A stretch of DNA of 51,692 nucleotides from Candidatus Woesearchaeota archaeon (lineage in GTDB: Archaea; Nanobdellota; Nanobdellia; SCGC-AAA011-G17; GW2011-AR17). The first letter of the stretch is position 1; every line of letters begins with the position of its first letter. The notes under the pieces are model-generated. The model searched no databases. It was not told where the DNA came from and was given only the letters and a program-made list of their open reading frames with translations. The stretch covers positions 1 to 51,692 of the forward strand of contig JAFCFS010000004.1 of NCBI GenBank assembly GCA_017608525.1. The letters run 5' to 3'. A program made the position numbers and the translations under genes. Of the stretch, positions 17,180 to 49,637 are shown one piece after another.

Positions 17180-18658
<1,479 letters not shown>

Positions 18659-32520: not shown

Positions 32521-32555
32521 TTTTTTATTTTTTATTTTAAATTTCATGCTTTAAA

Positions 32556-32672: not shown

Positions 32673-32735
32673 TTCTAACATCTTTTTTCTTTCAAACACA
32701 AAAGTTATATATTAATAAGTGATGAATTTTTTAGA

Positions 32736-33458: not shown

Positions 33459-33461
33459 AAT

Positions 33462-33998: not shown

Positions 33999-34035
33999 AA
34001 AAAAATTTAAAAGAATATGATATTTATAATTTTCT

Positions 34036-35955
34036 ATGGATTATATTAAGCTAGCTGAGTTATACGAAAAATTAGAAAGTACAACAAAAAGGTTGGAGAA
34101 AACTTATCTTCTATCAAAATTTTTAGAGAAAACAAAAAAAGAAGTACTCGATTATGTTATTTATTTGTTGCAAGGAAGGGTTTTTCCGCCGTGGGATGAA
34201 AGAGTTATAGGTTTTAGTTCTCAATTGATGCTTAGGGCAATCAGCAAAAGTACAGGAATAAGCATCAGAAAGGTTGAAGATTTATGGAGGAGAATTGGAG
34301 ACTTGGGAAACGTTGCTGAAAATTTGATAGGAAAGAAGAAGCAATCTACTTTATTTACAAAACACGTTACTGTTAAGAAAGTAGTTGATAACATAAGAAA
34401 ATTGGCTGAAATAACTGGTGTTGGAACAGTTGACAAAAAAATAAGTTTGGTTTCTGAATTGCTTACGTCTGCTAAGCCATTAGAGGCAAAATTTATTGTT
34501 AGAACTGTTCTTGAAGATCTAAGGACAGGTGTTGGCGAGGGAACTTTAAGAGATGCAATAGCATGGGCATTCTTACCAAAAATCATCGGAATTTTTTACC
34601 AATGTAATGAGTGCAAAGAATTTGTTCCGGCAGTTAAAAAATGTTTAAACTGCAATTCACAGATAGAATTAAATTTTAAAAAAGAAGTTGAAAAAAAATT
34701 TAAGGGTCTCAAAATACTAAAAGTTAAAAAAATCTCGGACTTGAAAAATTTGAAGAAATACGATCTTATTATTTGTAAAGATGAAAGGCTTGCTAGAGAT
34801 GTATATAACTACATAATTGAAGAACTGCAACATGCATATGATTTAACAACAGACTTTGGTGTTGTTGCTATAAAATTGATTGAAAAGGGATTAGAAGGCC
34901 TGAAAGAAATTTCTCTTGTCCCGGGAAAGCCAATAAAAGTTATGCTATACCAAAAAGCAGAGGACATAAAGGATGGATTTGAAACAGTTGGAAAGCCAGC
35001 AGCACTCGAATTTAAATACGATGGTTTTAGATTGGAGCTACATAGAAAAGGAGAAAAAATATGGTTGTTTACAAGAAGGCTTGAGGATGTTACAAAACAA
35101 TTTCCGGATGTTGTGAGCTATATTAAAAAAGCAATAAAGTCAAAAGATTTTATTTTAGATTGTGAAACCATAGGAATTGATCCGAAAACAGGGAGATGGC
35201 TTCCATTCCAGAATATATCACAAAGAATTAAAAGAAAATACGATATTCAAAAGATGGTAAAGGAAATTCCAGTAATGGTGAATATCTTCGATGCGATGGA
35301 GGTGGATGGAAAAAATTTACTTAACGTTCCATTTAAAGAAAGAAGAAAAATTCTGGAAAAGATTGTTAAACCGATAAAAGATAAAATTGGCTTAGCAGAA
35401 CAAATAATTACTTCAAGTGAAAAAGAGGCAAAAAAGTTTTTCCAAAAGGCACTTTCTTTAGGAAATGAAGGAATAATGATGAAAAATCTGAATGCAATTT
35501 ATAAGCCAGGAAGCAGAGTCGGATACGGGGTTAAAGTAAAGCCTGTTTTGGAAAGTTTAGATTTAGTAATTACGGGAGCAGAGTGGGGAAGAGGAAAGAG
35601 GGCTACTTGGCTCAGCAGTTTTGTTTTGGCCTGCAGAGATGAAGAAGGAAATCTTTTGGAGGTTGGGAAAGTAGGTACTGGGATAAAGGAAAAAGCTGAA
35701 GAGGGTGTAAGTTTTGAGCAGTTGACAAAAATACTAAAACCGCTTATAATTGGACAGAAAGGAAGAGAGGTTAGAGTTAAACCTGAAATTGTTGTTGAAG
35801 TAACGTATGGAGAAATTCAAAAAAGTCCAAGTTATTCTTCCGGCTATGCTTTAAGATTTCCAAGGGTTGTTAGGTTAAGAACAGACAGAACTGTTAATGA
35901 TATAACAACAATAGGAGAAATTCGCAATCTTTACAAAAAACAACACAAGAAATAA
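34036..35955 (+). CDS. lig: ATP-dependent DNA ligase with a roughly 70-aa Zn-ribbon-containing insertion
   Basis: Ligase motifs are the adenylation motif EFKYDGFRLELH, then FILDCETIG, GIMMKNL and GYGVKVKP. The insertion is YQCNECKEFVPAVKKCLNCNS... It lies between the DNA-binding domain (GVGEGTLRDAIAWAF) and the conserved AYDLTTDFG. Confidence 0.9.
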   Translation: MDYIKLAELYEKLESTTKRLEKTYLLSKFLEKTKKEVLDYVIYLLQGRVFPPWDERVIGFSSQLMLRAISKSTGISIRKVEDLWRRIGDLGNVAENLIGKKKQSTLFTKHVTVKKVVDNIRKLAEITGVGTVDKKISLVSELLTSAKPLEAKFIVRTVLEDLRTGVGEGTLRDAIAWAFLPKIIGIFYQCNECKEFVPAVKKCLNCNSQIELNFKKEVEKKFKGLKILKVKKISDLKNLKKYDLIICKDERLARDVYNYIIEELQHAYDLTTDFGVVAIKLIEKGLEGLKEISLVPGKPIKVMLYQKAEDIKDGFETVGKPAALEFKYDGFRLELHRKGEKIWLFTRRLEDVTKQFPDVVSYIKKAIKSKDFILDCETIGIDPKTGRWLPFQNISQRIKRKYDIQKMVKEIPVMVNIFDAMEVDGKNLLNVPFKERRKILEKIVKPIKDKIGLAEQIITSSEKEAKKFFQKALSLGNEGIMMKNLNAIYKPGSRVGYGVKVKPVLESLDLVITGAEWGRGKRATWLSSFVLACRDEEGNLLEVGKVGTGIKEKAEEGVSFEQLTKILKPLIIGQKGREVRVKPEIVVEVTYGEIQKSPSYSSGYALRFPRVVRLRTDRTVNDITTIGEIRNLYKKQHKK

Positions 35956-35977
35956 TCTAATTCTAAAAAATAAAAAG

Positions 35978-36100
35978 TCCCCGCGGCCGGATTCGAACCA
36001 GCGACCTTCCGGGTCCAGCTGTCCATTTGTCATTCACAGCTGGTTGCTTGGTCCAAATGGAATCTACAGCCGGATGCTCTAACCACTGAGCTACGCGGGG
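35978..36100 (-). tRNA. tRNA-Tyr (anticodon GUA) with a 50-nt anticodon-loop intron
   Basis: The acceptor CCCCGCG/CGCGGGG has C1:G72, the archaeal Tyr identity pair. The anticodon stem TCCGG/CCGGA is separated by 57 nt that start with CTGTAGA. The T arm is GCTGG-TTCGAAT-CCGGC. The total is 123 nt = 73 + 50. Confidence 0.85.
36014..36063 (-). other. Predicted intron of tRNA-Tyr (position 37/38, or 38/39)
   Basis: The segment is ATTCCATTTGGACCAAGCAACCAGCTGTGAATGACAAATGGACAGCTGGA. Two interleaved 8-bp complementarities are TCCATTTG/CAAATGGA and CCAGCTGT/ACAGCTGG. Confidence 0.6.
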
Positions 36101-36145
36101 CACACTTTTAAGAGAATTTTTTTATTTTTAAGATTTACTTTTATT

Positions 36146-37111
36146 TTAAATAAGTTTACCTTTACAAATTAATACACAATCTTCAAGATTTTGCTTTCTT
36201 TTTGCTATATAATTTTCCATTTCAATATAGGTATTCTTTGAATCAATAAAACATCCCTCGCCGCATACTTCGTTTAACCTACCAATTACATTCTTTGTTG
36301 CATAAAAATTATCATTTCCATTTACATTAGCAGCATTAACCACACAATGTTTGGCCATATAAAAATTGCCATCTCCTTCAATTTCCTCAATTGTTACTGC
36401 CAAATTCTCTGCCATTGTAAAGTTATAATTCCCACCAAGCTTTTTTCCTACTACAATTCCTTTATTAAGTAAAACACCAAGCTCAAAAGAATTGATGTAA
36501 TCTGAAATCAAGAAGGCATTTTTCGAATATGCTAAAAAACATTTTCCTTCTAAAAATTTTACATCTATGAAACAATTCTCTGTTGCAGCAAAATTAGATT
36601 CTCCACTAATCTTTTCGCAACTAACAATAATATTTTTTGATCCCCAAAATAAGTTAGAACCACAAAATTCGTCTGCTAAAAAAACCACTGCATCATTACA
36701 TTTTAAGGAGATTCCAAAACCATCAATTTCTATCTTTCCAAACTTCCTTAAGTCAAAAAATCTGTATCCATTTTCATAACAAACTTTTAATAAAGAAGAT
36801 ATTGCAAGACCAATATCATAGTTAGTAATACTATATTCTTTTCTTTTTGAGAAATTGATATACTCCTCTATAATTTTAGGTGTAATCTTTTTGTTTCTTA
36901 GAAACTTTGTGTACTCTTCAATATAATTTTCAAATCTTTTTAAATTCGGAAACAATTTGTTTTTTTCTATTCTATTTTTTTCAAAAAATCCGATAATTTC
37001 ATCAATACAGCCCTGTTCTGTTTCGACAATTATTGGTTTTTTCTCTAGAGAGGGCTTTTCAACATTTTTAAAAATTTTTTCCAGCGTTATTTTTTCTTCT
37101 TCCTCTGGCAT
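36146..37111 (-). CDS. Hypothetical protein: N-terminal alpha domain plus about 8 tandem 19-residue beta-solenoid-like repeats
   Basis: Repeats with G-x-x-N-F-x(4)-N periodicity are GSNLFWGSKN, GESNFAATEN, GGNYNFTMAEN, GDGNFYMAKH, GNDNFYATKN and GEGCFIDSKN. It lies downstream of kal on the same strand. The start is uncertain (37111 or 37141). Confidence 0.5.
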   Translation of the reverse strand: MPEEEEKITLEKIFKNVEKPSLEKKPIIVETEQGCIDEIIGFFEKNRIEKNKLFPNLKRFENYIEEYTKFLRNKKITPKIIEEYINFSKRKEYSITNYDIGLAISSLLKVCYENGYRFFDLRKFGKIEIDGFGISLKCNDAVVFLADEFCGSNLFWGSKNIIVSCEKISGESNFAATENCFIDVKFLEGKCFLAYSKNAFLISDYINSFELGVLLNKGIVVGKKLGGNYNFTMAENLAVTIEEIEGDGNFYMAKHCVVNAANVNGNDNFYATKNVIGRLNEVCGEGCFIDSKNTYIEMENYIAKRKQNLEDCVLICKGKLI

Positions 37112-37491
37112 TCTTTTGGAGTAACACAGACTCCTTCGCACTTTGCAACGAGAACTTTTTTTTCAAGGGCATCAAATGCAGATGGTTGATTCGGTATTTT
37201 TGCATTTGTTATGATTTTATACACTTCAAATTCCATATGTCTTGATGTATTCCCTACTTTAGTAATTCTTCCATAAACTTCCAAATAATCACCACCATAA
37301 ACAGGCTTTAAGTATTCTGTTTTTCTAGCCCTAAAAAGTCCTTCATCTCCATCATACTCTATCAAAAGTCTTGTTGCAGCATCGCCTATCAACTGATCTA
37401 TTCTACTTCCATCAACTAAATTTCCAGCGTAATGTGCTTCGTTAAATGCAATCCTTTGAACAAGCAAAAGCTTAAGTTTTTTCTTTCCCAT
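37087..37491 (-). CDS. kal: Hotdog-fold protein, probable 3-aminobutyryl-CoA ammonia-lyase
   Basis: It is about 134 aa from ATG 37491. The segment AHYAGNLVDGSRIDQLIGDAATRLLIEYDGDEGLF...YLKPVYGGDYLEVYGRITKVGNTS matches my memory of Kal and a hotdog fold. It lies immediately downstream of kce. Confidence 0.65.
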   Translation of the reverse strand: MGKKKLKLLLVQRIAFNEAHYAGNLVDGSRIDQLIGDAATRLLIEYDGDEGLFRARKTEYLKPVYGGDYLEVYGRITKVGNTSRHMEFEVYKIITNAKIPNQPSAFDALEKKVLVAKCEGVCVTPKECQRKKKK

Positions 37492-38308
37492 TTTCCAACC
37501 CCATGATTTTTCTTGCTTCATCCGGTGTTGCAACCTCTCTTCCATATTCTTTTGCTAGTCTAAAAATTCTTTTAACAAGTTCGTAACTTCCTTTTGCCAA
37601 TCTTCCTTTTGAATAATAAATATTATCTTCTAATCCAGTTCTTACGTGCCCTCCCATTATCAATGCACCAATATTTATTTTTAATTGATTTTTTCCAATT
37701 CCACTTGCAGTCCAGACAGAATTTTTCGGAAGTAAATCAACTATATGTATAAGTTGTTTTAAAGAAGCAGGCATGCCACCAAAAACTCCGAAGACGAGAT
37801 TATATAAGTAGGGCTTCTTGACCAATTTTTTCTTTATTAAATATTTCGATTGCTCTATCCCAGATGTATCAAAAATTTCAAATTCAGCTTTAACACCTTC
37901 CTTTTTCATTATTTTTGCAAATTCCACCATTGTTTCCAAATCATTAACAAATATTTCTTCCCCAAAATTCATTGTTCCTATATCAAGAGTTGCTATTTCG
38001 GGCTTTAGATAAACTGGTTGGATTCTTTCTTCAATAGACATTCCTATTGCTCCTCCTGTTGAAACATTAATTATTGGTTTTTCTTTGCAGACAGAATTTA
38101 TTGCACTTATTGCTTCTTTGAAAATTTCTATGTCTTGTGTTGGTTCTCCATTATCTTTTCTTACATGCAAATGAATTACTGATGCACCATTTTCCACACA
38201 CTTTTTTGCTTCATTTGCTATTTCTTCAATAGTGTACGGAATATATTTTGTTTGTTCTTTGAAAATTTCAGCTCCACAAATTGCCGCAGTTATAATTAAT
38301 TTTTCCAT
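37472..38308 (-). CDS. kce: 3-keto-5-aminohexanoate cleavage enzyme (BKACE/DUF849 family)
   Basis: The protein is 278 aa. It has the N-terminal LIITAAICGAE and the HLH zinc motif in VIHLHVRKDNGEPT, a TIM-barrel length and the family-typical GHVRTGLEDN. Confidence 0.85.
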   Translation of the reverse strand: MEKLIITAAICGAEIFKEQTKYIPYTIEEIANEAKKCVENGASVIHLHVRKDNGEPTQDIEIFKEAISAINSVCKEKPIINVSTGGAIGMSIEERIQPVYLKPEIATLDIGTMNFGEEIFVNDLETMVEFAKIMKKEGVKAEFEIFDTSGIEQSKYLIKKKLVKKPYLYNLVFGVFGGMPASLKQLIHIVDLLPKNSVWTASGIGKNQLKINIGALIMGGHVRTGLEDNIYYSKGRLAKGSYELVKRIFRLAKEYGREVATPDEARKIMGLENGKEKT

Positions 38309-38343
38309 GCCACATAATTATCTTGGAAAATGATTTATAAATT

Positions 38344-39249
38344 TTACTTAGAAACCTTCATTTCGTATTTTATAACAAAATAGTTTGAAAGTAAAATTAG
38401 AATTCCACCAATTATTATGTTTGTGGTTAAAGGTTGATTTAGGAAAAATGCAGCAATTAATGATGCACACACAGGTTCAAGCAATAAAATAATTCCACTT
38501 GTTGAAGCAGAAACGTTTTCTAGACCTTTATAAAGGCATAGATAAGGAATTAGGCTGGATACGATGGCATAAATAACCAAATAAAACCAAATGTTCCCGT
38601 AAAAAAAATTGAAAGTTAAATTTGTTTTAAAAGCAGAACGAGTTAAAAGATAGAAGATTAATATGAAACTGCAGTTAAAAAAGCAATAAAAAAATGTTGT
38701 TAATATAGGAGGGTGTTTTTCTAATCCATTTAATCTACCATAAAGAAGCCAAGCTCCCATAGCCATTGCACCTATAAGCGAAATAGATAATCCTAAGAGA
38801 TTAAACTTTTTTAAATTTGTTGGCCCTACCAAAATAGTTGCGCCTAACAAAACAATAAAGATAGAAAAAATTTTTGTTTTTGTTACACTCTGTTTAAGCA
38901 CAGCCTTTTCTAATAAAATTGCCCACAAAGGCTGTGTGTAAATAAGAAGAATAACTATTGCAATAGGAATTCCTAACTCTATTGGGATAAGCATTGCTAG
39001 CCTTACGATGCCTCCAAATAAACTCAAGAATAAAAAATATAGCAGCATCCTTTTAGAAAATCTAATTCTCTCTTTTATAATTAAAATTATTGTGTAAGGG
39101 AGAAGAAGAATAGTCGCTATGATTAATGGAAAGATTGCTACTCCATAAGCAGATAAACCTTTGTCCATCAAGAATTTTCCACCAGTTGTGAGTGTTCCAA
39201 AGAGGATTCCTGTTAAGATTACGTAAAAATAATGAATTTTTTTCATCAC
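38344..39249 (-). CDS. DMT-superfamily (EamA-like) transporter, about 10 TM segments
   Basis: The protein is 301 aa and very hydrophobic, with a two-fold internal repeat architecture typical of EamA. Confidence 0.7.
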   Translation of the reverse strand: MMKKIHYFYVILTGILFGTLTTGGKFLMDKGLSAYGVAIFPLIIATILLLPYTIILIIKERIRFSKRMLLYFLFLSLFGGIVRLAMLIPIELGIPIAIVILLIYTQPLWAILLEKAVLKQSVTKTKIFSIFIVLLGATILVGPTNLKKFNLLGLSISLIGAMAMGAWLLYGRLNGLEKHPPILTTFFYCFFNCSFILIFYLLTRSAFKTNLTFNFFYGNIWFYLVIYAIVSSLIPYLCLYKGLENVSASTSGIILLLEPVCASLIAAFFLNQPLTTNIIIGGILILLSNYFVIKYEMKVSK

Positions 39250-39306
39250 TAAGTAATTTTCTCAGAAAGTTTTTTAAAATTTCGAATTTCTCTAAATTTT
39301 AGAAAA

Positions 39307-40317
39307 ATGAAGTATGGTTGCCATAGAGTAATAAAACCAAAAGGAGTTTTTCCTCAAGCTGCTTATAAACTTGATAATACACCAAAAGCTTACGATGATG
39401 AAATTCTTATCCAAGTTGAAACCTTGAATATAGATTCGGCAAGTTTTAAGCAAATTAAAGATGAAGTTGGGGAGAAAGGTATAGCAAAAAGAATCATGGA
39501 AATTGTTGAAGAAAGAGGAAAAATGCACAACCCAGTAACGAATTCTGGAGGAATGCTAATTGGGAAAATAAAAGAAATTGGAAAAAGTTTAGAAGGAAAA
39601 ATAGATGCAAAGGTTGGTGATAGGATCGCTACATTAGTATCTTTGACTCTTACACCATTAAAATTGTACAGAATTAAAAAAATTAAAGGTGAGCAGATTG
39701 ATGTCGATGCATATGCCATATTATTTGAGAGTAGCATATTTGCAAAACTTCCTGAAGACATTGATGCTAAAGTTGCATTGGCTGCTTTAGATGTGGCAGG
39801 TGCAGCGCCTTTAGTTGGAAAGCTTGTTAAAGAAGGAGATACAGTTTTGATTTTAGGTGCCGGAAAATCAGGAATGCTGTGTACATATGAAGCCAGAAAA
39901 AGAACAAAGAATGGAAAGGTAATTGTTATGACAAGATCTAAAAAAAGTGCTGGTAGGATTAAATCTTTGGGTTATGCTGATTATGTTTTCAGAGCTGATG
40001 CAACAAATCCTTTAGAAGTTTTAGATAAAATTGAAAAAGTAACAAAAGGTGAATTATGCGATGTTGTTATAAATGCCGTTAATGCCTCTAATACAGAAAT
40101 GGCGAGTATAGTTTCGGCAAAGGATGGAGGAAAGATATGCTTTTTTTCAATGGCAACAAGCTTTCAAAAAGCAGCATTAGGGGCTGAAGGAATAGGAAAG
40201 GATGTTTATATGTTGATTGGTAATGGTTATTCAAAGGGGCATGCCGAGTATACATTAAATATACTAAGGGAAAGCAAACCATTAATGAAAGTTTTTAAGA
40301 AACTATACGGAAATTAA
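39307..40317 (+). CDS. kdd: L-erythro-3,5-diaminohexanoate dehydrogenase
   Basis: The N-terminus is GCHRVIKPKGVFPQAAYKLDN and the Rossmann motif is ILGAGKSGML. The protein is 336 aa and sits next to kamA. Confidence 0.8.
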   Translation: MKYGCHRVIKPKGVFPQAAYKLDNTPKAYDDEILIQVETLNIDSASFKQIKDEVGEKGIAKRIMEIVEERGKMHNPVTNSGGMLIGKIKEIGKSLEGKIDAKVGDRIATLVSLTLTPLKLYRIKKIKGEQIDVDAYAILFESSIFAKLPEDIDAKVALAALDVAGAAPLVGKLVKEGDTVLILGAGKSGMLCTYEARKRTKNGKVIVMTRSKKSAGRIKSLGYADYVFRADATNPLEVLDKIEKVTKGELCDVVINAVNASNTEMASIVSAKDGGKICFFSMATSFQKAALGAEGIGKDVYMLIGNGYSKGHAEYTLNILRESKPLMKVFKKLYGN

Positions 40318-40325
40318 TTTTAAAT

Positions 40326-41507
40326 TTGTTGAAAGAGGTGGTTTTATTGAGACCTTGGAAAGAATGGGGAGTGACTAGAAAAGAATGGAATAGTTGGAAA
40401 TGGCAAATTGAAAATAGAATAACATCACTTGAAAAATTGGAGCAGCATGTTAATTTAACAGAAAACGAGAAAATTGGTGTTAGTGAAGTTTTAAAAAAAT
40501 TCAGGATGGCGATTACCCCATATTACGCTTCTCTTATTGACCCCTATGATGAAAATTGTCCAATAAGGCTACAGGCAATTCCAAGGAAAGAAGAAACGCT
40601 GATTTCTAAATTTGATTTGAAGGACCCCTTAGGAGAGGTTAGAGACTCAAAAAACGAATGCATAGTGCATAGGTATCCTGATAGAGTTTTGTTTTTAGTA
40701 ACCGATAAATGTGGCATGTATTGCAGACATTGTACTAGGAGAAGGATGGTTGGACAAACAGACGCCCATAAAAGTGAGAAAGCAATAAAAGAAGGAATAA
40801 AATACATTAAAAGGAATGAAAAAATAAAAGATGTTCTGATTTCTGGTGGAGACCCTTTTGTGATGGAAAATGATGAACTGGAGGAAATAATCGAGGATGT
40901 TTATAAAATACCACATGTAGAAATAATAAGGGTGGGCACAAGAACTCCAGTCACATTACCACAAAGAATTACAAGAAAATTGACTAGGATGTTAAGAAAA
41001 TATCATCCCCTATATGTGAATACGCATTTCAACCATCCGAAAGAATTTACCCCTGATTCAGAAAGGGCTGTTAAAAGGTTAGTCGATGCTGGCATACCAG
41101 TTGGAAATCAAACTGTTCTTTTAAGAAGGGTGAACGATTGTAAAAATGTAATGAGAGAATTGGTTTATAAATTAATCAAAAATAGAATTAGGCCCTATTA
41201 TATATATCAATGCGATTTATCAGAGGGGATAGAGCATTTCAGAACCAAAGTTGACGTAGGGATAGAAATAATTGAATCACTGAGAGGACATATTTCAGGC
41301 TTGGCTATTCCAACTTATGTTATAGATGCTCCAGGTGGCGGTGGAAAAATACCAATAACGCCAAATTATCTGCTTACTAAAAAAGATGGCAAAGTTATAA
41401 TAAGAAACTATAAGTGGGAAATTGCTGAATATCCTGAACCAAATTACGAAAAACTTAAATGTAATTGCGAATTCTGCAGAAAAGAGAATGCTGAAGAAGA
41501 GAATTGA
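40326..41507 (+). CDS. kamA: Lysine 2,3-aminomutase (radical SAM, PLP)
   Basis: The motifs are WNSWKWQIENRI, CGMYCRHCTRRR (CxxxCxxC), SGGDP, YIYQCDLSEGIEHFRT, VIDAPGGGGK (PLP Lys) and the C-terminal CNCEFC zinc motif. There is no ATG at the N-terminus, so the start is probably TTG/GTG between 40326 and 40347. Confidence 0.9.
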   Translation: MLKEVVLLRPWKEWGVTRKEWNSWKWQIENRITSLEKLEQHVNLTENEKIGVSEVLKKFRMAITPYYASLIDPYDENCPIRLQAIPRKEETLISKFDLKDPLGEVRDSKNECIVHRYPDRVLFLVTDKCGMYCRHCTRRRMVGQTDAHKSEKAIKEGIKYIKRNEKIKDVLISGGDPFVMENDELEEIIEDVYKIPHVEIIRVGTRTPVTLPQRITRKLTRMLRKYHPLYVNTHFNHPKEFTPDSERAVKRLVDAGIPVGNQTVLLRRVNDCKNVMRELVYKLIKNRIRPYYIYQCDLSEGIEHFRTKVDVGIEIIESLRGHISGLAIPTYVIDAPGGGGKIPITPNYLLTKKDGKVIIRNYKWEIAEYPEPNYEKLKCNCEFCRKENAEEEN

Positions 41508-42462
41508 CAAACACAAAATAATTTCTTTTATAGGTATTGCTAAAAATGTTGGGAAAACTACCGCACTATCCAGCTTTCTCAAAAATTATAAAAATCTTGG
41601 TGTAACGACAATTGGGATAGATGGGGATGAAATATGCTCTTTAACTGGAAAGGAAAAACAAACAATTTATCTTCCTGCAGGCACATTTTTTACCACAACA
41701 GATGTAGAAGTAAGAAAAAGAGATATTTCAGTTAAAATAGTTGAAAACACAGATATAATCACACCATATGGTAATATTATAATAGCAAAAACTGAAATAC
41801 CGGACTATGCTCAAATTTATGGCTGTGGTTCAATAGCAGATACGGAAAAAGTGATTTTTAAAATGATTTCTCGCGGAGCAAAAAAGGTACTTATAGACGG
41901 GAGTTTTAATAGAGTATCCCATACAAAAATTTCAGCAGGAACAATTTTGGTGGCAGGCGTGATAGAAGGAAAAGATTACGAGTACGCAATAAATGAAACA
42001 AAAAAAATGGTGGAATTCATGGGTTTTAAAAAATCAAATTTAAGGCCGAAAAAAACACCCTGCATATACAAAAATGGAAAAGAAATAGGTTTAGGAATAG
42101 ACTCTATACTTGGAAAAGAAGATAAAGTTATTGAGAAATTAGATAACGTAACAACACACGTCGTTTTTTCAGGAGCATTTACTTCGAATACTTTAAAAAA
42201 ATTTATTAAATTTGGATTCGATTTTAAGAAAATTAAAATTGTGTTAAATAATTGTTGCGATTGTCTTTTAAGCTATAAAGAATATCGATTGCTAAAAGAG
42301 CTAGGAGGCAAAATTGAGGTGCTAAACAAAACAGATATCTGCGGCATCGCTGTTAACTCATTTTCTTTTTCAAATTATATCAACCCAAAGAAAATATTTA
42401 AAATGTTTAAAAAAGAATTTCCTTCCATATATGTTTTTGATGTCATGTTAAAATGTTCATAG
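41488..42462 (+). CDS. P-loop protein; candidate small subunit of a lysine 5,6-aminomutase reactivase (KamB-like)
   Basis: It has a Walker-A-like IGIAKNVGKTTAL near the N-terminus. It lies between kamA and a MutS-like ATPase, as in bacterial lysine-fermentation clusters as I remember them. I prefer start ATG 41488, which overlaps kamA by 20 nt. Confidence 0.5.
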   Translation: MLKKRIDKHKIISFIGIAKNVGKTTALSSFLKNYKNLGVTTIGIDGDEICSLTGKEKQTIYLPAGTFFTTTDVEVRKRDISVKIVENTDIITPYGNIIIAKTEIPDYAQIYGCGSIADTEKVIFKMISRGAKKVLIDGSFNRVSHTKISAGTILVAGVIEGKDYEYAINETKKMVEFMGFKKSNLRPKKTPCIYKNGKEIGLGIDSILGKEDKVIEKLDNVTTHVVFSGAFTSNTLKKFIKFGFDFKKIKIVLNNCCDCLLSYKEYRLLKELGGKIEVLNKTDICGIAVNSFSFSNYINPKKIFKMFKKEFPSIYVFDVMLKCS

Positions 42463-44018
42463 ACGATAACACAGAAAAGGCATTGGGTTTGGATAAGGTA
42501 TGGAAATCCTTGCCAATTTCTGGACAGTTGGGTAGAGAGTATTTGGAAAATTTGGAATACAAAAAAGAAAAGAAAAGGCTTAATTTGGAATATTCTGAAC
42601 TTTCGAAAATGATTAATGTACTTAAAAAAGAGGAGGCAAAAATACTATGCACAAAGCAATTATTAAAAAATTTGAAAACACTCAAGAATACATTTACAAA
42701 ATTGAGAAATGACGAAGTGCTGGATGAAATTGATGTGTTTGAATTGAAATACTTTTTATACCATTATAATAAAATAGCAGAACTTTGGCATTTTAAAATG
42801 ATTAAAAACTTATGGAAAATTTTAGATCCGAAAAATCTCCAAACTTACGATTTTTATATATATGATGAGTATTCAAAGAAAATTAGTAGAATAAGGAAAC
42901 GTATACTGAATCTTAAAAAATTGAGAGAGAAAATTGTGAAAAAAATATGTAAAGAAATTGGTATCGAAGCAAGCGAAAAAATTGTTGTTGATAAAGAAGA
43001 AAAAAAATTAATTAGAAAATTATTAGCTAATAAAAATTTCAAAAAAGATAAAGAAACATTTTCCAGCATTGTTTTTTCAGTTAAAAATGAAGAAATTGAT
43101 GAAGTGGATAGAGAGATTGAGATGCTTATTCTCGAGAAAAATAAAGAGAAGGAAGTAGTATTAAAGAACCTCTCAGAGAAAATTAAAAAGCACTTTAAAG
43201 AAATTATGGCAGCTTATGAAAAATTGAAAAAATTAGATTTTATGATAGCAAAAGCAACTTTTTGTTTAGAAAATCAACTAAAAAAGCCGAAGATAACAAA
43301 CAAAGAAAGATTGGTAATTAAAAAAGGTACACATATCTTTTTAAAAAACGAGCTTTCAAAATTGGGTTTAAATTATACCCCAATAGATATAGAAATTAAT
43401 AAGAATATATGCGTCATTTACGGTTCTAATATGTCTGGGAAAACACAAGCTTTAAGAACAATTGGATTTATCGTTGGGCTTGCGCAGGCAGGATTTTTTG
43501 TACCTGCTGAAATATTTGAATTTAAACCCTTTGACTTTATTTTGTTTAGCATAGGCGAAAATCTTGATGAAATAGGTTATAGTACTTTTGCACAAGAAAT
43601 TTTAAGAATAAATTCTGTTTTTAAAAGGAAAAAAGAATTTGGCTTGGCTTTAATTGATGAGATAGCAAGAGGAACAAATCATTTTGAAGCTCAAGCTTTA
43701 TCACTTGCGCTTATTGACGAATTTAAAAATTTGAATTCTTTTGTTCTTATGACAACACATCTTCCTGGCTTGTTAAATCTAAAAAATGTGGAATACTATA
43801 AAACAGGTGGTTTGATTAAAGAAAAAATTGAAAAACTAAAAAAACTAAGATTGGAAAACAAAATGGAAAATCTAAAATTAATAAATAATTTAATGAACTA
43901 TAGATTGGAAAAGGAAGGTGATTTTACTTTCGACGCAATTAATGTTGCTCTGCTTTTGGGGGTGGATAAAAAAATAATAGAGAAAGCTAAAAATTATATG
44001 AAAAATGAGAATAGATAG
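42453..44018 (+). CDS. MutS domain V-only ATPase; candidate lysine 5,6-aminomutase reactivase ATPase (KamC-like)
   Basis: The motifs are the MutS-type Walker A GSNMSGKTQALRTIG and the Walker B LIDEIARGTNHFEAQALSLAL, followed by TTH. The N-terminal half is a coiled coil with no mismatch-binding domain. Confidence 0.6.
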   Translation: MFIDDNTEKALGLDKVWKSLPISGQLGREYLENLEYKKEKKRLNLEYSELSKMINVLKKEEAKILCTKQLLKNLKTLKNTFTKLRNDEVLDEIDVFELKYFLYHYNKIAELWHFKMIKNLWKILDPKNLQTYDFYIYDEYSKKISRIRKRILNLKKLREKIVKKICKEIGIEASEKIVVDKEEKKLIRKLLANKNFKKDKETFSSIVFSVKNEEIDEVDREIEMLILEKNKEKEVVLKNLSEKIKKHFKEIMAAYEKLKKLDFMIAKATFCLENQLKKPKITNKERLVIKKGTHIFLKNELSKLGLNYTPIDIEINKNICVIYGSNMSGKTQALRTIGFIVGLAQAGFFVPAEIFEFKPFDFILFSIGENLDEIGYSTFAQEILRINSVFKRKKEFGLALIDEIARGTNHFEAQALSLALIDEFKNLNSFVLMTTHLPGLLNLKNVEYYKTGGLIKEKIEKLKKLRLENKMENLKLINNLMNYRLEKEGDFTFDAINVALLLGVDKKIIEKAKNYMKNENR

Positions 44019-45558
44019 AAAAAAAGTTGAAGCATGCAGAAAAGAAGCAAAAAAAATTGCGCTTAAACTAAAGGAGTTCATAGATCTTCATTCAACAACA
44101 ACAATAGAGAGGAGTATTGTTAGACTTTTTGGTGTTGATGGCGTAGATAAAAATGGGATTCCTTTGCCAAATGTTGTTGTTGATCATGTTAAATCTTTTG
44201 GAGGGCTTGCTAGAGGTGTTTCTTATTGGTTAGGAAATGCCTCTATAGCGCTGAATAAAAATCCACAGGAAATAGCTGAATTGATTGCAGAGAAAAAAAT
44301 AAACCTATCAAAATTGAAAAAGAACGATGATGAAGAAATTAAAAAAGTTATAGACAGATGGGCTGATGATGCTATTAAAAGAATAGTGAAAGTAAGGAAG
44401 GAGAGAGAAAGATTAATAAAGAAATTGGGCGAGGGAGAGAAACCTTTGCTTTACGCCATAGTTGCAACAGGAAATATTTATCATGATATAATTCAGGCAA
44501 AATCAGCTGTTAAAAATGGAGCTGATATAATTGCAGTGATTAGGAGTACAGCACAAAGTTTGTTGGATTATGTTCCTTACGGTGCGACAACAGAAGGTTA
44601 TGGTGGGACATATGCTACTCAAGAAAATTTCAGAATAATGAGGAAAGCATTGGATGAAGTTGGAGAAGAAGTTGGAAGATACATAAGGCTTGTTAACTAT
44701 GCATCTGGGTTATGTATGCCTGAAATTTCTGTAATGGGAGCTTTTGAAAGACTTGATATTATGTTAAATGACTCTATGTACGGAATTCTATTTAGGGACA
44801 TAAACATGAAGAGAACCTTCACTGATCAGCATTTTTCTAGAATAGTAAATGCTGTAGGAGGCATTATAATAAACACTGGGGAGGATAATTATTTGACAAC
44901 ATCAGATGCCATAGAACATGCGCACACAGTTTTAACATCTCAATTTATAAATGAACAACTTGCTTTACTCTCCCTACTTCCGAAAAAACAAATAGGTTTG
45001 GGGCATGCTTTTGAAATTAATCCGGACATAAAAAATGGTTTGCTTTACGAAATAGCTCACGCACTTTTAGTTAGGGAAATATTTAAAGAAGAACCAATAA
45101 AATATATGCCACCAACAAGATTTATGACAGGGAATATTTTTAAGGGCCATGCGATGGATACAATGTTTAATCTAGTTTCAGTTTTAACAAGACAGCACAT
45201 TCATTTAGTCGGAATTTTGACAGAAGCAATACACACACCTTTTATGCAAGACAGGCATATTTCTTTGGAAACTGCAAAATATGTGATGAATAATGCAAGA
45301 GATTTAGCAAAGGAAATAGAATTTAAGAAAAACGGTTTTATAGAAAGAAGGGCCAACAAAGTTTTGGACGAAGCATATAGATTATTGAGAAAAATAAGTA
45401 AAGTTGGATTAATGAGGGCCATAGAAGCAGGAATATTTGCAAACATTGCTAGACCAATTGATGGAGGGAAAGGCCTAGATGGGGTTTTTGTAAAAGATCA
45501 AGATTATTACAATCCATTTTTAAAAAAATTTGAGAAGGCAATGAAAAATGAAATTTGA
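44005..45558 (+). CDS. kamD: Beta-lysine (D-lysine) 5,6-aminomutase alpha subunit
   Basis: The protein is 517 aa with a TIM-barrel-sized subunit. It lies directly upstream of, and overlaps, the B12-binding beta subunit. Its sequence is consistent with KamD as I remember it. Confidence 0.8.
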   Translation: MRIDRKKVEACRKEAKKIALKLKEFIDLHSTTTIERSIVRLFGVDGVDKNGIPLPNVVVDHVKSFGGLARGVSYWLGNASIALNKNPQEIAELIAEKKINLSKLKKNDDEEIKKVIDRWADDAIKRIVKVRKERERLIKKLGEGEKPLLYAIVATGNIYHDIIQAKSAVKNGADIIAVIRSTAQSLLDYVPYGATTEGYGGTYATQENFRIMRKALDEVGEEVGRYIRLVNYASGLCMPEISVMGAFERLDIMLNDSMYGILFRDINMKRTFTDQHFSRIVNAVGGIIINTGEDNYLTTSDAIEHAHTVLTSQFINEQLALLSLLPKKQIGLGHAFEINPDIKNGLLYEIAHALLVREIFKEEPIKYMPPTRFMTGNIFKGHAMDTMFNLVSVLTRQHIHLVGILTEAIHTPFMQDRHISLETAKYVMNNARDLAKEIEFKKNGFIERRANKVLDEAYRLLRKISKVGLMRAIEAGIFANIARPIDGGKGLDGVFVKDQDYYNPFLKKFEKAMKNEI

Positions 45559-46291
45559 TTTGAAAAAAATAAAGTCTTATGGAGATTGCTATGATGGATC
45601 TGTTCAGCTTAGTTTTACATTGCCAATAAAATGTTCAGGAAAAGCAAAAGAAGCTGCTAAAAAATACGTTGAAAAAATGGGTTTCAAAGATGTTATGGTG
45701 CATTATATGAAAGATATTGGTGAGAATTTTACTTTTTTCATTGTTTACGGTAAAGCGCAACATACAATAGATGTTACAAAAATTAAAGTTGAAGAAGCTA
45801 AATTCAAAAAAATGGATATGTATAAGATTGATGATTTAATAAAGAAAAAAATTGGAAGGAAGCTTGTGGTTGTTGGGGCATGTATTGAAAGTGATGCTCA
45901 CTCTATTGGGATAGATGCAATTATGAATATGAAAGGTTTTCACGGTAATTATGGTCTGGAAAGGTACAAATGGATAAAAGCATACAACATGGGTGCTCAA
46001 GTTCCGTGTGTTGAACTAGTTAAAAAAATAAGAGAGGTTAATGCAGATATAGTTCTTGTTTCCCAGGTTGTTACACAAAGAAACATTCATATAAAAAATT
46101 TAACAAAGCTCGTCGAATTGCTTGAAGCTGAAAATTTGAGAGATAAAATAATTTTGATATGTGGAGGGCCAAGGATAACACACAAACTTGCATTAGAATT
46201 AGGATACGATGCTGGATTTGGACCCGGTACTGTAGCAAGTGACGTTGCCTCTTTCTTTGTGCAGAAGTTTATTGAAAAACATGAGTTGTAG
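45548..46291 (+). CDS. kamE: Beta-lysine (D-lysine) 5,6-aminomutase beta subunit (B12- and PLP-binding)
   Basis: The DxHxxG cobalamin motif is ESDAHSIG. A Lys lies exactly 11 residues after the His (HSIGIDAIMNMK), matching the His133/Lys144 spacing of characterised KamE. Confidence 0.88.
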   Translation: MKFDLKKIKSYGDCYDGSVQLSFTLPIKCSGKAKEAAKKYVEKMGFKDVMVHYMKDIGENFTFFIVYGKAQHTIDVTKIKVEEAKFKKMDMYKIDDLIKKKIGRKLVVVGACIESDAHSIGIDAIMNMKGFHGNYGLERYKWIKAYNMGAQVPCVELVKKIREVNADIVLVSQVVTQRNIHIKNLTKLVELLEAENLRDKIILICGGPRITHKLALELGYDAGFGPGTVASDVASFFVQKFIEKHEL

Positions 46292-46330
46292 GAAAAAATA
46301 TTTAAATTTCCTTTAAATTTCTTTTTTTTG

Positions 46331-48124
46331 ATGTTGAAGGAATTAATTAAGGAAACAAAAGAGGAATTGCTAAACGAGCTTGTTAAAATAGATGAAAATA
46401 TAACTAAAATTTTAAGAGACTCACCTAACACAGAATCTGCTAGAAATTCTTTGATTGAATACCTGAAGAAATTAGAAGAGGATTATTTTGGAGACAAAAC
46501 AAATAAAGCTCATATACTGGAGAGAATGAATGCTAAAGAATGCATAAAAGTGTTGAGGAATATTATAAGGAGAGAAAATGAATTACTAACCGGGTTTTCA
46601 GCACTTGAGAAATTGATAAAGCTATTTAAAGGTAAAGGCTTAGAGGAAGTAAGTAAAGGATTTATTTGCGAATTTATTTTTCTTTTTAAAGGTATTAATT
46701 GCAATTCAGGAATTTTTATTTATGGTGAACAGAATTTTAATGAGGAAGGAAGAAAAGCAGCCATTAAGAGATCTCAAGCTCTTGATAAATATTCAAGTTT
46801 AATAACAAAATACTTCAAAAGGTATAAAACTGGATGCGATCCCGATATTGTAAGAAAAACAAATGAACTGAAAAAAGAAATTCTTCAATTTTTTGGTGGC
46901 AAAGAAGAGGATTGGTTGGATTATAAATGGCATATGAAAAATATTATTATGGATTTAGATACACTTTCATCGCTTATTAAATTAGAAAAGGATGAAATTG
47001 AGAGTTTAAAATATGCTCAAGAAAACAACATTCCATTCCAAATTACACCACACTATCTTTCTCTGTTTAACAAAAACGGAAGATGTGATTATGATAGGGT
47101 TCTTAGGGCACAAGTAATCCCAAGTCTATATTATTGTAAAAATGTTGTAAAGAATAGAGAAGAAAAAATTTCTATGGATTTTATGGGTGAGCATTCTACA
47201 AGCCCTATTGATTGCATAACAAGAAGATACCCACAAATACTTATCCTAAAACCTTATGATGCTTGTCCCCAAATATGTGTATATTGCCAGAGAAATTGGG
47301 AAGTAAAAAGCATAAAATCGGCAAGAATAACAAAGAAGAAAGTAGAAAAAGCTATTTCATGGATTAAGGAGAATAAAAACATTACCGAGGTTCTTGTTAC
47401 TGGAGGGGATCCATTTTCCTTAAGTAACGAATATATCGATTGGTTAATGGGGGAATTGGCAAAAATAGAACATGTTGAAAGAATTAGAATTGGAACAAGA
47501 ACATTGGTAACTCTTCCGTATAGGATTAATGAAGGCATGATTAAGATATTGAAGAAATATCATAAGCTAGGAAAAAGGGAAGTTTGTATTGTAACGCATT
47601 TCGAACATCCGATAGAAATTTGCCCACCTGTATTGGAAGCGATAAAAAAGATTAAAGAACTTGGAATCTCTATATATAACCAACAAGTTTTTACATATTA
47701 CAATAGTAGAAAATTTGAAACATGCTTTTTGAGAAGAACTTTAAAACTTTATGGCATAGATCCATATTACGCATTTAATACAAAAGGAAAAGAAGAAACT
47801 ATGGACTTTAGAGTTCCAATTGCGAGAATAGAACAAGAAAGAAAAGAGGAAGCTAGACTTTTGCCAGGAGTAGTGAGAACTGATGAACCTGTTTTTAATG
47901 TCCCTAAGCTTGGAAAATCCCATTTGAGGGCTTGGCAAGATCACGAAGTAATAATGATACTCGCTGATGGAAAAAGAGTTTACAGATTCCTACCTTGGGA
48001 ATCAAAATTTGCTATTGTCGATGATTATTTATATACTGATGTTTCAATTTATGATTACTTAAAAAGGTTAGATAGAGATGGGGAAAATATTGAAGATTAT
48101 AAATCGATATGGTACTATTTCTAA
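46331..48124 (+). CDS. KamA-family radical SAM aminomutase paralogue with a roughly 175-aa N-terminal extension; glutamate 2,3-aminomutase-like substrate residues
   Basis: The motifs are CPQICVYC (CxxxCxxC), TGGDP and IGTRT. When aligned to the neighbouring KamA, QCDLS becomes NTKGK (Asp to Lys) and VIDAPGGGGK becomes VFNVPKLGK (Asp to Asn, with the PLP Lys kept). The C-terminal CxCxxC motif is absent. Confidence 0.6.
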   Translation: MLKELIKETKEELLNELVKIDENITKILRDSPNTESARNSLIEYLKKLEEDYFGDKTNKAHILERMNAKECIKVLRNIIRRENELLTGFSALEKLIKLFKGKGLEEVSKGFICEFIFLFKGINCNSGIFIYGEQNFNEEGRKAAIKRSQALDKYSSLITKYFKRYKTGCDPDIVRKTNELKKEILQFFGGKEEDWLDYKWHMKNIIMDLDTLSSLIKLEKDEIESLKYAQENNIPFQITPHYLSLFNKNGRCDYDRVLRAQVIPSLYYCKNVVKNREEKISMDFMGEHSTSPIDCITRRYPQILILKPYDACPQICVYCQRNWEVKSIKSARITKKKVEKAISWIKENKNITEVLVTGGDPFSLSNEYIDWLMGELAKIEHVERIRIGTRTLVTLPYRINEGMIKILKKYHKLGKREVCIVTHFEHPIEICPPVLEAIKKIKELGISIYNQQVFTYYNSRKFETCFLRRTLKLYGIDPYYAFNTKGKEETMDFRVPIARIEQERKEEARLLPGVVRTDEPVFNVPKLGKSHLRAWQDHEVIMILADGKRVYRFLPWESKFAIVDDYLYTDVSIYDYLKRLDRDGENIEDYKSIWYYF

Positions 48125-48173: not shown

Positions 48174-49403
48174 TTGGAAATGAAGAAAACAGTGGAGGAT
48201 TTTATAAAACAGGCAGAAAGATACGGTGCTAAAAATTATGCCCCTTTGCCTGTTGTTTTGACAAAAGGTGATGGAATTTATTTGTACGATATTAATGGTA
48301 AAAAATATTTCGATATGTTGAGCGCTTATTCTGCAGTCAACCAGGGTCACAACAATAAAAAGCTGATAAAAGCAGCAATAAAGCAACTCAAAAGGTTGTA
48401 TCTTACGTCAAGAGCATTTCATAACGATAAAATGGGAGATTTTTTACAAAAAATTGCAGAAATAACAGGATACGAAAAAGTAATCCCAATGAACACAGGT
48501 GCGGAAGGTGTTGAAACAGCAATAAAAATAATGAGAAAATACGCATATGAGAAAAAGGGAATTAAAAAGGATTGTGGGGAAATAATAGTAGCAGAAAATA
48601 ATTTTCATGGGAGAACTACAACAATTGTCGGTTTTTCAACAGACAAAACAACAAAGGAAGGATTTGGTCCCTATACCCCAGGATTTAAAATAATAAAATA
48701 TAACGATATTGGAGAACTGGAAAAAGCAATTAATGAAAATACTATTGGATATTTAGTTGAACCAATTCAGGGGGAAGCTGGAGTGATAATACCTGATGAT
48801 GATTATTTCAGGAAAGTTAGGGAAATATGTGATAAATACGGAATTCTTCTTGCATTTGATGAAATTCAAACAGGCTTAGGCAGAACTGGAAAATTGTTTT
48901 GTTTCCAGCATTATGGAATCAAACCAGATATTTTAATTTTAGGTAAAGCATTGAGCGGAGGACTTTACCCTATTTCATGTGTAGCTACTTCTGCAGAAAT
49001 CATGAATGTTTTGACACCAGGAACGCATGGAAGTACATTTGGTGGTAATCCATTAGCAAGTGCTATTGGAATCGCATCTTTAGAGTACATAATAAAAAAC
49101 AAACTCCCTGAAAATGCAGAAAAGCTTGGAAAGTATTTTATTGAAAAATTAAAAAAGGAAATTATGGACGATGATATAAAAGAAATAAGAGGAAAAGGTC
49201 TATTAATTGCTGTGGAAATGAAAAAACCTGTAGCAAGGAAAGTTTGCATTGAATTGATGAGGGTTGGAATTCTTGCTAAAGACACACATGAAAAAACAAT
49301 AAGATTTGCTCCTCCTTTGATAATAAAGAAAAAACAAATAGATAAAGCAGTTATGAAAATCAAAAAAGGATTTGAGAATTTTAGAAAATGTTCTTGTACA
49401 TAG
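48174..49403 (+). CDS. rocD: Ornithine aminotransferase (class III PLP aminotransferase)
   Basis: The motifs are NYAPLPVVLTKGDGIYLYD, LSAYSAVNQGH, DEIQTGLGRTG and GKALSGG (PLP Lys). Confidence 0.85.
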   Translation: MEMKKTVEDFIKQAERYGAKNYAPLPVVLTKGDGIYLYDINGKKYFDMLSAYSAVNQGHNNKKLIKAAIKQLKRLYLTSRAFHNDKMGDFLQKIAEITGYEKVIPMNTGAEGVETAIKIMRKYAYEKKGIKKDCGEIIVAENNFHGRTTTIVGFSTDKTTKEGFGPYTPGFKIIKYNDIGELEKAINENTIGYLVEPIQGEAGVIIPDDDYFRKVREICDKYGILLAFDEIQTGLGRTGKLFCFQHYGIKPDILILGKALSGGLYPISCVATSAEIMNVLTPGTHGSTFGGNPLASAIGIASLEYIIKNKLPENAEKLGKYFIEKLKKEIMDDDIKEIRGKGLLIAVEMKKPVARKVCIELMRVGILAKDTHEKTIRFAPPLIIKKKQIDKAVMKIKKGFENFRKCSCT

Positions 49404-49621
49404 TGAGAAAGAAAAAGGAAAAAATTAAAAATGGGGTTTATAGGGTAGAGTACTTTCTATCAAAAGAAAAATTGACACAAAAACAAATTGATTTTTATGA
49501 AGCTACGAAAAATTGCAAAATAGTACAGGAGATTAAATTGCCCAATAAAAAACCGGTTGGAAAAAAGTTGGAATTAATACTTAAAGATCCTTTATTTGAG
49601 GACATACCATACTCATATTAA
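49388..49621 (+). CDS. Small hypothetical protein (77 aa)
   Basis: This ORF fills the rocD-rocA gap and overlaps the rocD end by 16 nt. It is K-rich with no recognisable motif, so it may not be real. Confidence 0.3.
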   Translation: MFLYIVRKKKEKIKNGVYRVEYFLSKEKLTQKQIDFYEATKNCKIVQEIKLPNKKPVGKKLELILKDPLFEDIPYSY

Positions 49622-49637
49622 TATTGGAGGTGTTGAG

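Follow-up and report, generated by a model that had tools for sequence, protein, structure and literature searches.

A bacterial-type lysine degradation cluster that probably belongs to a DPANN archaeon

Methanogens make the osmolyte N-epsilon-acetyl-beta-lysine by means of AblA and AblB. In bacteria, a gene cluster for the fermentation of lysine was reportedly described from Fusobacterium nucleatum and Clostridium sticklandii by Kreimeyer et al. 2007 (J Biol Chem 282:7191), and the chemistry of the pathway is said to have been established in that work and by Chang and Frey 2000. The present analysis concerns contig JAFCFS010000004.1 of assembly GCA_017608525.1, of which positions 1 to 51,692 (hereafter the window) were analysed, and in particular the interval 36146-46291, which carries genes of this kind. 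We consider it likely that a DPANN archaeon (Woesearchaeota/Nanoarchaeota) carries here a lysine degradation cluster of bacterial type, horizontally acquired and by now fully adapted to its host.

The first-pass annotation of this DNA presumed that the full fermentative route was not known from archaea. The premise is outdated because metagenome-assembled genomes (MAGs) of Asgard archaea carry kce-kdd-kamA-kamB-kamD-kamE. The archaeal context that it described holds, and the unusual part is that the host is a DPANN archaeon, which the annotation did not recognise. Among the 120 best KamD matches listed, GenBank names many as lysine 5,6-aminomutases of Promethearchaeota, Lokiarchaeota and Hodarchaeota MAGs; no DPANN archaeon is among the named ones. 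The order kce-kdd-kamA-X-kamB-kamD-kamE is found in Promethearchaeota GCA_048940925.1 (L165) and Hodarchaeota GCA_048886165.1 (L166). All five Asgard proteins scanned (Kce, Kdd, KamA and KamB of L165, and KamB of L166) clear their equivalog cut-offs, while KamD and KamE of both loci were identified by Pfam matches and KamD also by its GenBank name. The protein in the slot between kamA and kamB (X) contains TPR repeats in L165 (7037-8803) and has no family match in L166 (5914-7977); it may be a different reactivase partner. The main text of Imachi et al. 2020 (PMC7015854) does not mention lysine.

The interval 36146-46291 holds ten open reading frames (ORFs) in two divergent groups, which meet at an AT-rich spacer of 57 bp (39250-39306). 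In order of transcription, the minus-strand operon comprises eamA, kce, kal and an ORF of 331 amino acids, and the plus-strand operon reads kdd-kamA-kamB-kamC-kamD-kamE. Overlaps of 10-20 nt join the genes from kamA through kamE, which indicates that they form one operon. The promoters of both operons are presumed to lie within 39250-39306, where no Rfam riboswitch was detected at the gathering threshold; none was found in the window as a whole. Every gene that the first-pass annotation had named is real and lies where it was placed, but the inventory did not name the KamBC reactivase and the EamA transporter, which also belong to the interval. The features of the cluster are as follows.

36146-37141, minus strand: ORF of 331 amino acids; no NCBIfam match, weak DUF3737 match below the cut-off
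37087-37545, minus strand: kal, 3-aminobutyryl-CoA ammonia-lyase, hotdog fold (NF052388 below cut-off; Pfam 4HBT)
37472-38308, minus strand: kce, 3-keto-5-aminohexanoate cleavage enzyme, BKACE family (NF052387; structure 2Y7D)
38344-39249, minus strand: EamA/DMT-family transporter, heading its operon (Pfam EamA, E 2e-29)
39250-39306, no strand: AT-rich spacer of 57 bp that separates the divergent genes eamA and kdd (from the sequence)
39307-40317, plus strand: kdd, L-erythro-3,5-diaminohexanoate dehydrogenase (NF052381; structure 7DL3)
40326-41507, plus strand: kamA, lysine 2,3-aminomutase, a radical S-adenosylmethionine (SAM) and pyridoxal phosphate (PLP) enzyme (TIGR03820; structure 2A5H)
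41488-42462, plus strand: kamB, reactivase subunit of lysine 5,6-aminomutase (NF052386, marginal)
42453-44018, plus strand: kamC, MutS-like reactivase ATPase (NF052383; Pfam MutS_V; P-loop GSNMSGKT)
44005-45558, plus strand: kamD, lysine 5,6-aminomutase alpha subunit (NF052384; structures 8T0V, 9Q1A, 1XRS)
45548-46291, plus strand: kamE, lysine 5,6-aminomutase beta subunit, binding adenosylcobalamin and PLP (NF052385; structure 9Q1A)

The ORF of kal overlaps kce, and the true start of kal is probably an internal methionine at 37521 or 37491. The ORF of kamB opens at 41422, and the ATG at 41488 agrees with the homologues. The EamA protein scores 86.7 bits against TIGR00950, under the cut-off of that model, and would probably move a substrate or product of the pathway, as importer or exporter. 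The ORF of 331 amino acids is not a pathway enzyme and may be co-transcribed with kal as part of the minus-strand operon. It has repeated GxxNF-like motifs and an overlap with the 3' end of kal, and it was also called in an independent contig (L001).

Enzyme identities were judged from the scores of hidden Markov models (HMMs) relative to the curated cut-offs of NCBIfam equivalog models, and catalytic residues were checked by alignment to solved structures. Six of the eight pathway enzymes exceed the cut-offs, KamB is marginal and Kal falls under. KamA reaches 555.7 bits against TIGR03820 (cut-off 525.4), KamD 860.5 bits against NF052384 (cut-off 600), KamE 384.4 bits against NF052385 (cut-off 280), KamC 402 bits against NF052383 (cut-off 300) and Kdd 240 bits against NF052381 (cut-off 200). 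For Kce, all BKACE equivalog models other than its own remain far under their cut-offs. Kdd matches 7DL3, a structure of 3,5-diaminohexanoate dehydrogenase, with E 1e-92, and KamD matches the lysine 5,6-aminomutase structures 8T0V, 9Q1A and 1XRS with E 1e-206 to 1e-216.

The motifs that the first-pass annotation had read in KamA, KamE and Kce hold in the structural alignments. KamA aligned to 2A5H (E 6e-145) conserves the radical SAM site CGMYCRHC (CxxxCxxC), the C-terminal CNCEFC, and the equivalents of Arg134, Asp293, Asp330 and K337, the PLP lysine in PGGGGK; the Asp293/Asp330 pair of lysine 2,3-aminomutase binds the epsilon-amino group of lysine. DAHSIG and the PLP lysine located 11 residues past its histidine are conserved in KamE relative to 9Q1A, 8T0V and 1XRS, and the zinc ligands HLH (His-x-His) together with the glutamate of EDN are conserved in Kce relative to 2Y7D (E 3e-69). 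The first-pass annotation had also considered that KamDE might group with ornithine 4,5-aminomutase (OraSE). KamDE instead sides with lysine 5,6-aminomutase, by the structure matches and by the models, as the OraE model gives 146 and 132 bits on KamD and KamE, relative to a cut-off of 800. At the level of sequence, the gene identities, catalytic residues and operon structure are shown, with Kal under its cut-off.

The model TIGR03820 is named lys_2_3_AblA and spans both known roles of the aminomutase, so that kamA might serve the synthesis of a beta-lysine osmolyte, as in the AblA/AblB system, rather than catabolism. However, no GNAT/AblB acetyltransferase lies in or near the cluster, no acetyltransferase domain was found in the ORFs of at least 140 amino acids scanned over 36-51 kb, and kamA sits in a translationally packed row, after kdd and before kamBCDE, the products of which consume beta-lysine. 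An osmolyte role is thus extremely unlikely.

In the proposed route, KamA would convert L-lysine to L-beta-lysine by radical SAM/PLP chemistry, and KamDE, with adenosylcobalamin and PLP, would shift the terminal amino group of beta-lysine, with 3,5-diaminohexanoate as the product; KamDE would be kept active by its ATP-dependent reactivase, KamBC. Kdd would oxidise and deaminate 3,5-diaminohexanoate to 3-keto-5-aminohexanoate with formation of NH3 and NADH. Kce would then turn 3-keto-5-aminohexanoate and acetyl-CoA into acetoacetate and 3-aminobutyryl-CoA, from which Kal would eliminate NH3 to yield crotonyl-CoA. Closing the cycle would need the activation of acetoacetate, its thiolysis and a fate for crotonyl-CoA. 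The claim of the first-pass annotation that such a bacterial-type route from lysine to crotonyl-CoA lies on an archaeal contig is supported by the HMM scores, the residues and the flanks, with Kal under its cut-off. We infer activity in vivo, the direction of flux and the purpose of the route, namely energy by substrate-level phosphorylation; the end steps for acetoacetate and crotonyl-CoA and the supply of vitamin B12 would be encoded elsewhere in the genome. The only end-step candidate in the window is a lone Bcd-like acyl-CoA dehydrogenase (ACAD) at 3481-4647, where the first-pass annotation had reported it, which could possibly act as the crotonyl-CoA reductase of the lysine route. The cluster, the adjoining ornithine-to-glutamate genes and an operon for RidA, ACAD and methionine gamma-lyase together point to an amino-acid-fermenting lifestyle.

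The cluster could also be real and archaeal and yet serve something other than a classical butyrate/acetate fermentation, either as a truncated ammonia-releasing route or for the use of lysine or beta-lysine fed by a host. Acetoacetate and crotonyl-CoA would then be diverted to other needs, or methanogen pools of N-epsilon-acetyl-beta-lysine would be drawn upon, with acetyl-CoA coming from elsewhere. Such uses would agree with the lack of any CoA-transferase, thiolase or Etf found in the window, with the transporter embedded in the cluster, with the metabolically reduced and often host-dependent nature of DPANN archaea (PMC6349945), and with the association proposed between Woesearchaeota and methanogens (PMC5994134). 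In contrast, the closest known cluster, on the metagenomic contig ZHAN22-2 scaffold_3200 (ENA ERZ23498665, L002), adjoins genes for thiolase and 3-hydroxyacyl-CoA dehydrogenase, which suggests that the route in this clade is coupled to the regeneration of acetyl-CoA. An ACAD lies on the same contig as the present cluster, the presence of kamA indicates alpha-lysine as the entry substrate, and no deacetylase was seen in the 51.7 kb of the genome in view. A non-classical use therefore appears rather unlikely.

An assembly or binning artefact, a merger in silico of archaeal DNA with a lysine-fermentation fragment from a bacterium, would explain the bacterial-type order and content of the cluster and the position of KamD as sister to Thermotogae, and neither 39.6-42.7 kb nor 46.8-51.7 kb is covered by an independent assembly. 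This is countered by the JGI contig Ga0366835_1013475 (metagenome 3300033150, 11.4 kb), which corresponds to 28157-39594 of the window at 99.9% identity, with a few single-nucleotide polymorphisms and indels; hence the genes for GatE, GatD, FtsZ, DNA ligase and a tRNA lie on one physical piece with kal, kce, eamA and the first part of kdd. A second contig, Ga0366835_1066380, corresponds to 42734-46763 with one 27-nt indel. The relative synonymous codon usage of nine cluster genes is indistinguishable from that of eight archaeal housekeeping genes (r = 0.967; one half of the housekeeping set correlates with the other half at 0.956), whereas r ranges from -0.49 to 0.67 for bacterial kamD genes and is 0.78 for the kamD of L084, which lies in a bacterial gene context. 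The GC content at third codon positions is 0.24 in the cluster and 0.27 in the host genes, the overall GC content is flat at ~0.31 across the cluster, and archaeal genes are present on both sides. KamD exceeds 64% identity with no bacterial protein among the genome and metagenome scan matches listed, and among the protein matches listed only P0002, P0004 and P0006/P0007 (65%, in the Petrotoga/Marinitoga part of the tree) reach at least 65%, so that no bacterial genome stands out as the source of a chimera. As to the chimeric contig that the first-pass annotation had envisaged, an independent assembly bridges the junction at 35.9-36.2 kb and codon usage is even throughout, but no independent assembly was found for the junction at 51.2 kb. 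Chimerism is very unlikely, and we give an artefact of any such kind only a slight chance.

With the contig taken as genuine, its host was sought among the relatives of two markers. The named top matches of GatE (about 90 listed) come only from Woesearchaeota, Nanoarchaeota, DPANN or an unclassified 'archaeon', at 49-60% identity, and the next named group, Asgard (Helarchaeota), reaches only 44-45%. For the DNA ligase, whose gene is the protein-coding neighbour of the cluster, the named best matches among all 120 listed are Nanoarchaeota, Woesearchaeota, Nanoarchaeia or an unclassified 'archaeon' at 55-60%. The convergent overlap of the GatE and PHP genes is common to the Woesearchaeota MAG GCA_016211095.1. 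These similarities assign the contig to a DPANN archaeon, within the radiation of Woesearchaeota and Nanoarchaeota, that has no close sequenced relative. A host outside DPANN would require that the names Woesearchaeota and Nanoarchaeota on the nearest MAG proteins are misleading; the marker identities of only about 55-62%, the origin of these names with MAG submitters, and a contig catabolism richer than is typical of DPANN would fit such a host. Nevertheless, two independent markers agree in having named matches only in DPANN groups or unclassified archaea, with Helarchaeota GatE well behind, and the GatE/PHP microsynteny is that of a Woesearchaeota MAG. A large surface protein with Laminin_G and F5/8-type-C domains and the low GC content fit DPANN, and a gain of bacterial Rnf and Bcd/EtfAB is already known for some Woesearchaeota (subgroup J; PMC8421398). 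We regard a non-DPANN host as quite unlikely.

The descent of the cluster was approached through a neighbour-joining tree of 145 KamD sequences with 70 bootstraps. The KamD of the window forms a clade with P0001 (a 99% twin), P0002 (72%) and P0004 (67%) in 70/70 bootstraps, and this clade has as its sisters two Thermotogae MAGs of anaerobic-digester origin (55/70). A 42-sequence Asgard clade excludes the window clade. This position outside the Asgard clade and beside Thermotogae suggests a separate, old acquisition of bacterial type; its age is indicated by the complete codon amelioration in combination with the deep branch. The pathway has entered archaea on at least two occasions, one in Asgard and another in the window clade, and the donor in the present case would be bacterial. 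All eight enzymes are closest to those of L002, which indicates that the cluster has one history and was moved or inherited as a block; KamB and KamC are 40-41% identical to their L002 counterparts and 23-28% elsewhere. A KamD scan of genome contigs returned at least 80 loci, all bacterial and at most 62% identical, a result that is not informative on other DPANN genomes, and matches in metagenome contigs did not exceed 64%, with no further member of the window clade. On a contig of 2.2 kb (L169, Logan SRR32194795), the second-closest KamD (72%) is preceded by a MazE/PemK toxin-antitoxin pair and not by kamC, an unusual setting, though on a very short contig. A tRNA-targeted integration island was considered as well, but no tRNA-derived direct repeat (att-like) was found at 35.9-51.7 kb, and the idea is unsupported.

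Several points weigh against the acquisition of a working lysine pathway by a DPANN archaeon. Three of the enzyme assignments lie close to or under their thresholds: Kce barely passes NF052387 (384.1 bits, cut-off 382), KamB stays below NF052386 (E 4e-61, 206.7 bits, cut-off 210) and Kal stays below NF052388, or Lys_ferment_KAL (E 3e-38, 130.8 bits, cut-off 160). KamB occupies the same position as the KamB of L002, a protein 40% identical to it that scores 247 bits and clears the cut-off. In L002, Kal has a similar score to that of the window Kal (130.1 bits), and the nearest solved structure to Kal is the beta-alanyl-CoA:ammonia lyase 4MTU (E 3e-19), an enzyme of the same reaction class. The KamD tree is unrooted, the sister relation to Thermotogae has only moderate bootstrap support, and the closest cluster, L002, is on a metagenomic contig without an assigned taxon. 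The DPANN placement is a similarity ranking of two markers by the names of MAG submitters. No independent assembly was found for 39.6-42.7 kb and for 46.8-51.7 kb, the latter including the rocA/EF-1alpha junction; an exact-protein look-up of RocA gave no match, leaving the right junction without independent support. The ORFs scanned in the 51.7-kb window include no acetoacetate CoA-transferase, thiolase, crotonase or EtfAB, and no acetate/butyrate kinase, ACD, cobalamin transporter or adenosyltransferase, in agreement with the first-pass annotation, which had noted the lack of a CoA-transferase, EtfAB and a cobalamin supply. With none of these genes found in the window, closure of the pathway and B12 supply are unproven. 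Huang et al. (PMC8421398) report that cofactor pathways such as that of cobalamin are rarely complete in Woesearchaeota, and also that some of them (subgroup J) gained bacterial Rnf and Bcd/EtfAB; taken together, these statements make a fermentative, B12-scavenging lifestyle plausible here, although unproven.

The features that flank the cluster, and those further off in the window, are listed below.

34036-35955, plus strand: ATP-dependent DNA ligase, left archaeal flank (TIGR00574)
35978-36100, minus strand: archaeal tRNA with an intron, located past the ligase gene and ahead of the cluster (Rfam tRNA match, 59.4 bits)
46328-48124, plus strand: KamA-family radical SAM paralogue of 598 amino acids (TIGR00238 subfamily, 318 bits; no equivalog cut-off reached)
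48174-49403, plus strand: rocD-like ornithine--oxo-acid transaminase (TIGR01885, 534.5 bits, cut-off 378.4)
49596-51230, plus strand: RocA, L-glutamate gamma-semialdehyde (pyrroline-5-carboxylate, P5C) dehydrogenase (NF002852, 673.4 bits, cut-off 648)
51286-51692, plus strand: archaeal EF-1alpha, 5' part, residues 1-135, right archaeal flank (TIGR00483 and NF008969, E 1e-62 to 1e-64)
3481-4647, plus strand: ACAD, Bcd/AcrC-like (NF042972, 395 bits, cut-off 640)
17180-18656: archaeal 16S rRNA gene; a 23S rRNA gene is also present
25324-26616: asparaginyl-tRNA synthetase (AsnRS)

The archaeal flanks claimed in the first-pass annotation were recovered throughout, namely the 16S and 23S rRNA genes, gatD/gatE, the intron-bearing tRNA (123 nt) and tuf, which is the EF-1alpha gene at 51286-51692 and runs off the window end. 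The tRNA is taken to carry an intron because its match extends over 123 nt on a model of 71 positions; its anticodon was read as GUA (Tyr), and ARAGORN in bacterial mode misses it. The contig with the closest relative of the ligase (L168, 68% amino acid identity) bears the same intron-bearing tRNA at 77.5% nucleotide identity (L168 5352-5489, window 35972-36101). It has two extra ORFs between ligase and tRNA and an HNH/LAGLIDADG gene past the tRNA, so the tRNA neighbourhood is variable, and it ends ~1 kb past the tRNA, too soon to show presence or absence of the cluster. Other genes upstream encode a nitroreductase, FtsZ, GatD/GatE, a PHP protein, translin, two tRNA-Pro, Rad50/Mre11 and RNase J.

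The paralogue of 598 amino acids lies directly after kamE on the same strand and has an N-terminal extension of ~190 residues. A lysine takes the place of the Asp293 equivalent (QCDLS to FNTKG), and the protein may be an aminomutase that acts on something other than lysine, for instance an acidic substrate. A search for a glutamate 2,3-aminomutase signature gave no substrate call; the change of Asp293 to Lys is clear, while the Asp330/Lys337 region aligns ambiguously. The ACAD gene is part of a tight RidA-ACAD-methionine gamma-lyase operon (3105-5846, plus strand), a further site of amino-acid catabolism ~32 kb from the lysine cluster. Two large minus-strand genes encode a protein of 891 amino acids with Laminin_G_3 and F5/8-type-C domains (333-3008) and one of 726 amino acids without a clear family match (9845-12025); both recall the big surface proteins often reported for DPANN genomes. 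The 16S-23S spacer contains a 58-nt tRNA match (18699-18756, plus strand; 37.5 bits over the full model span) that ARAGORN does not call, and which may be an unusual or degenerate tRNA.

The chemistry of the pathway and the cluster type are known and there is the Asgard precedent; the DPANN host is the part that appears new. No report of lysine fermentation in DPANN was found in a literature search of limited coverage, in which an earlier report may have been missed. A review of DPANN archaea (PMC6349945) describes them as usually of minimal catabolism (sugars, nucleosides, some fatty acids, protein depolymerisation) and names sugars, fatty acids, nucleosides, polymers, glycerol and polyhydroxybutyrate as inferred substrates, with no lysine. 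Lysine catabolism is likewise absent from the main text of two large surveys of Woesearchaeota genomes (PMC8421398, PMC5994134). A bolder reading, possible but doubtful in our estimate, is that this Woesearchaeota-like organism is, to the extent that the search went, the first lysine-fermenting DPANN archaeon, having obtained the pathway, KamBC included, from bacteria independently of Asgard and using it as its main energy source. If true, it would live freely by fermentation or else as a symbiont on lysine or beta-lysine taken from a partner, such as a methanogen with abundant beta-lysine osmolyte, and in both cases external cobalamin would be needed. A complete and well-adapted route from lysine to crotonyl-CoA would give at least one DPANN lineage a defined energy substrate. 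It would fit the idea (PMC8421398) that some Woesearchaeota gained bacterial fermentation modules (Rnf, Bcd/EtfAB) and became less host-dependent, and suggests anoxic conditions with lysine and cobalamin for enrichment. The value of the finding is ecological and evolutionary, for DPANN physiology and cultivation strategy, and not mechanistic, since the pathway chemistry is textbook material.

Comparison with known systems places the cluster closest to the metagenomic contig L002, the nearest relative for all eight enzymes (kce 61%, kal 62%, kdd 66%, kamA 63%, kamB 40%, kamC 41%, kamD 67%, kamE 68%). Both have the kdd-kamABCDE operon and kce beside kal. In L002, however, kce-kal shares the strand of the kam operon, from which it is separated by genes for an aminotransferase, thiolase and 3-hydroxyacyl-CoA dehydrogenase, and there is no EamA gene. 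Bacterial kal-kce-kdd-kamABCDE clusters (Haloplasma L012, Inordinaticella L017 and L084) contain the same eight enzymes, and share with the window the order kdd-kamA-B-C-D-E and its tight packing; the catalytic residues of the window enzymes are those of the solved bacterial ones. They differ from the window, where kce and kal are inverted into a divergent operon headed by EamA, no butyrate/acetoacetate module adjoins, and the host is a DPANN archaeon; protein identity to the sampled bacteria is 50-62%, and 23-28% for KamB/KamC.

The Asgard loci L165 and L166 resemble the window in their archaeal host, in Kce, Kdd, KamA, KamB, KamD and KamE, and in the nearby ornithine/arginine catabolic genes. 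In contrast to the window, they have a non-MutS protein of 588-687 amino acids in the kamC slot and no adjoining kal; their proteins are 50-62% identical to those of the window (KamB 27%), and Asgard KamD, mostly of 525-529 amino acids compared with 517 in the window, falls in a separate clade. The AblA/AblB system shares the aminomutase equivalog family TIGR03820 with the window kamA, which is instead embedded among beta-lysine-consuming enzymes, without an AblB acetyltransferase. D-Ornithine 4,5-aminomutase (OraSE) belongs to the same superfamily of B12/PLP aminomutases, and its structure 3KOW is matched at E 6e-31 (KamD) and 2e-25; unlike OraSE, KamDE reaches the lysine 5,6-aminomutase models and stays far from the OraE cut-off.

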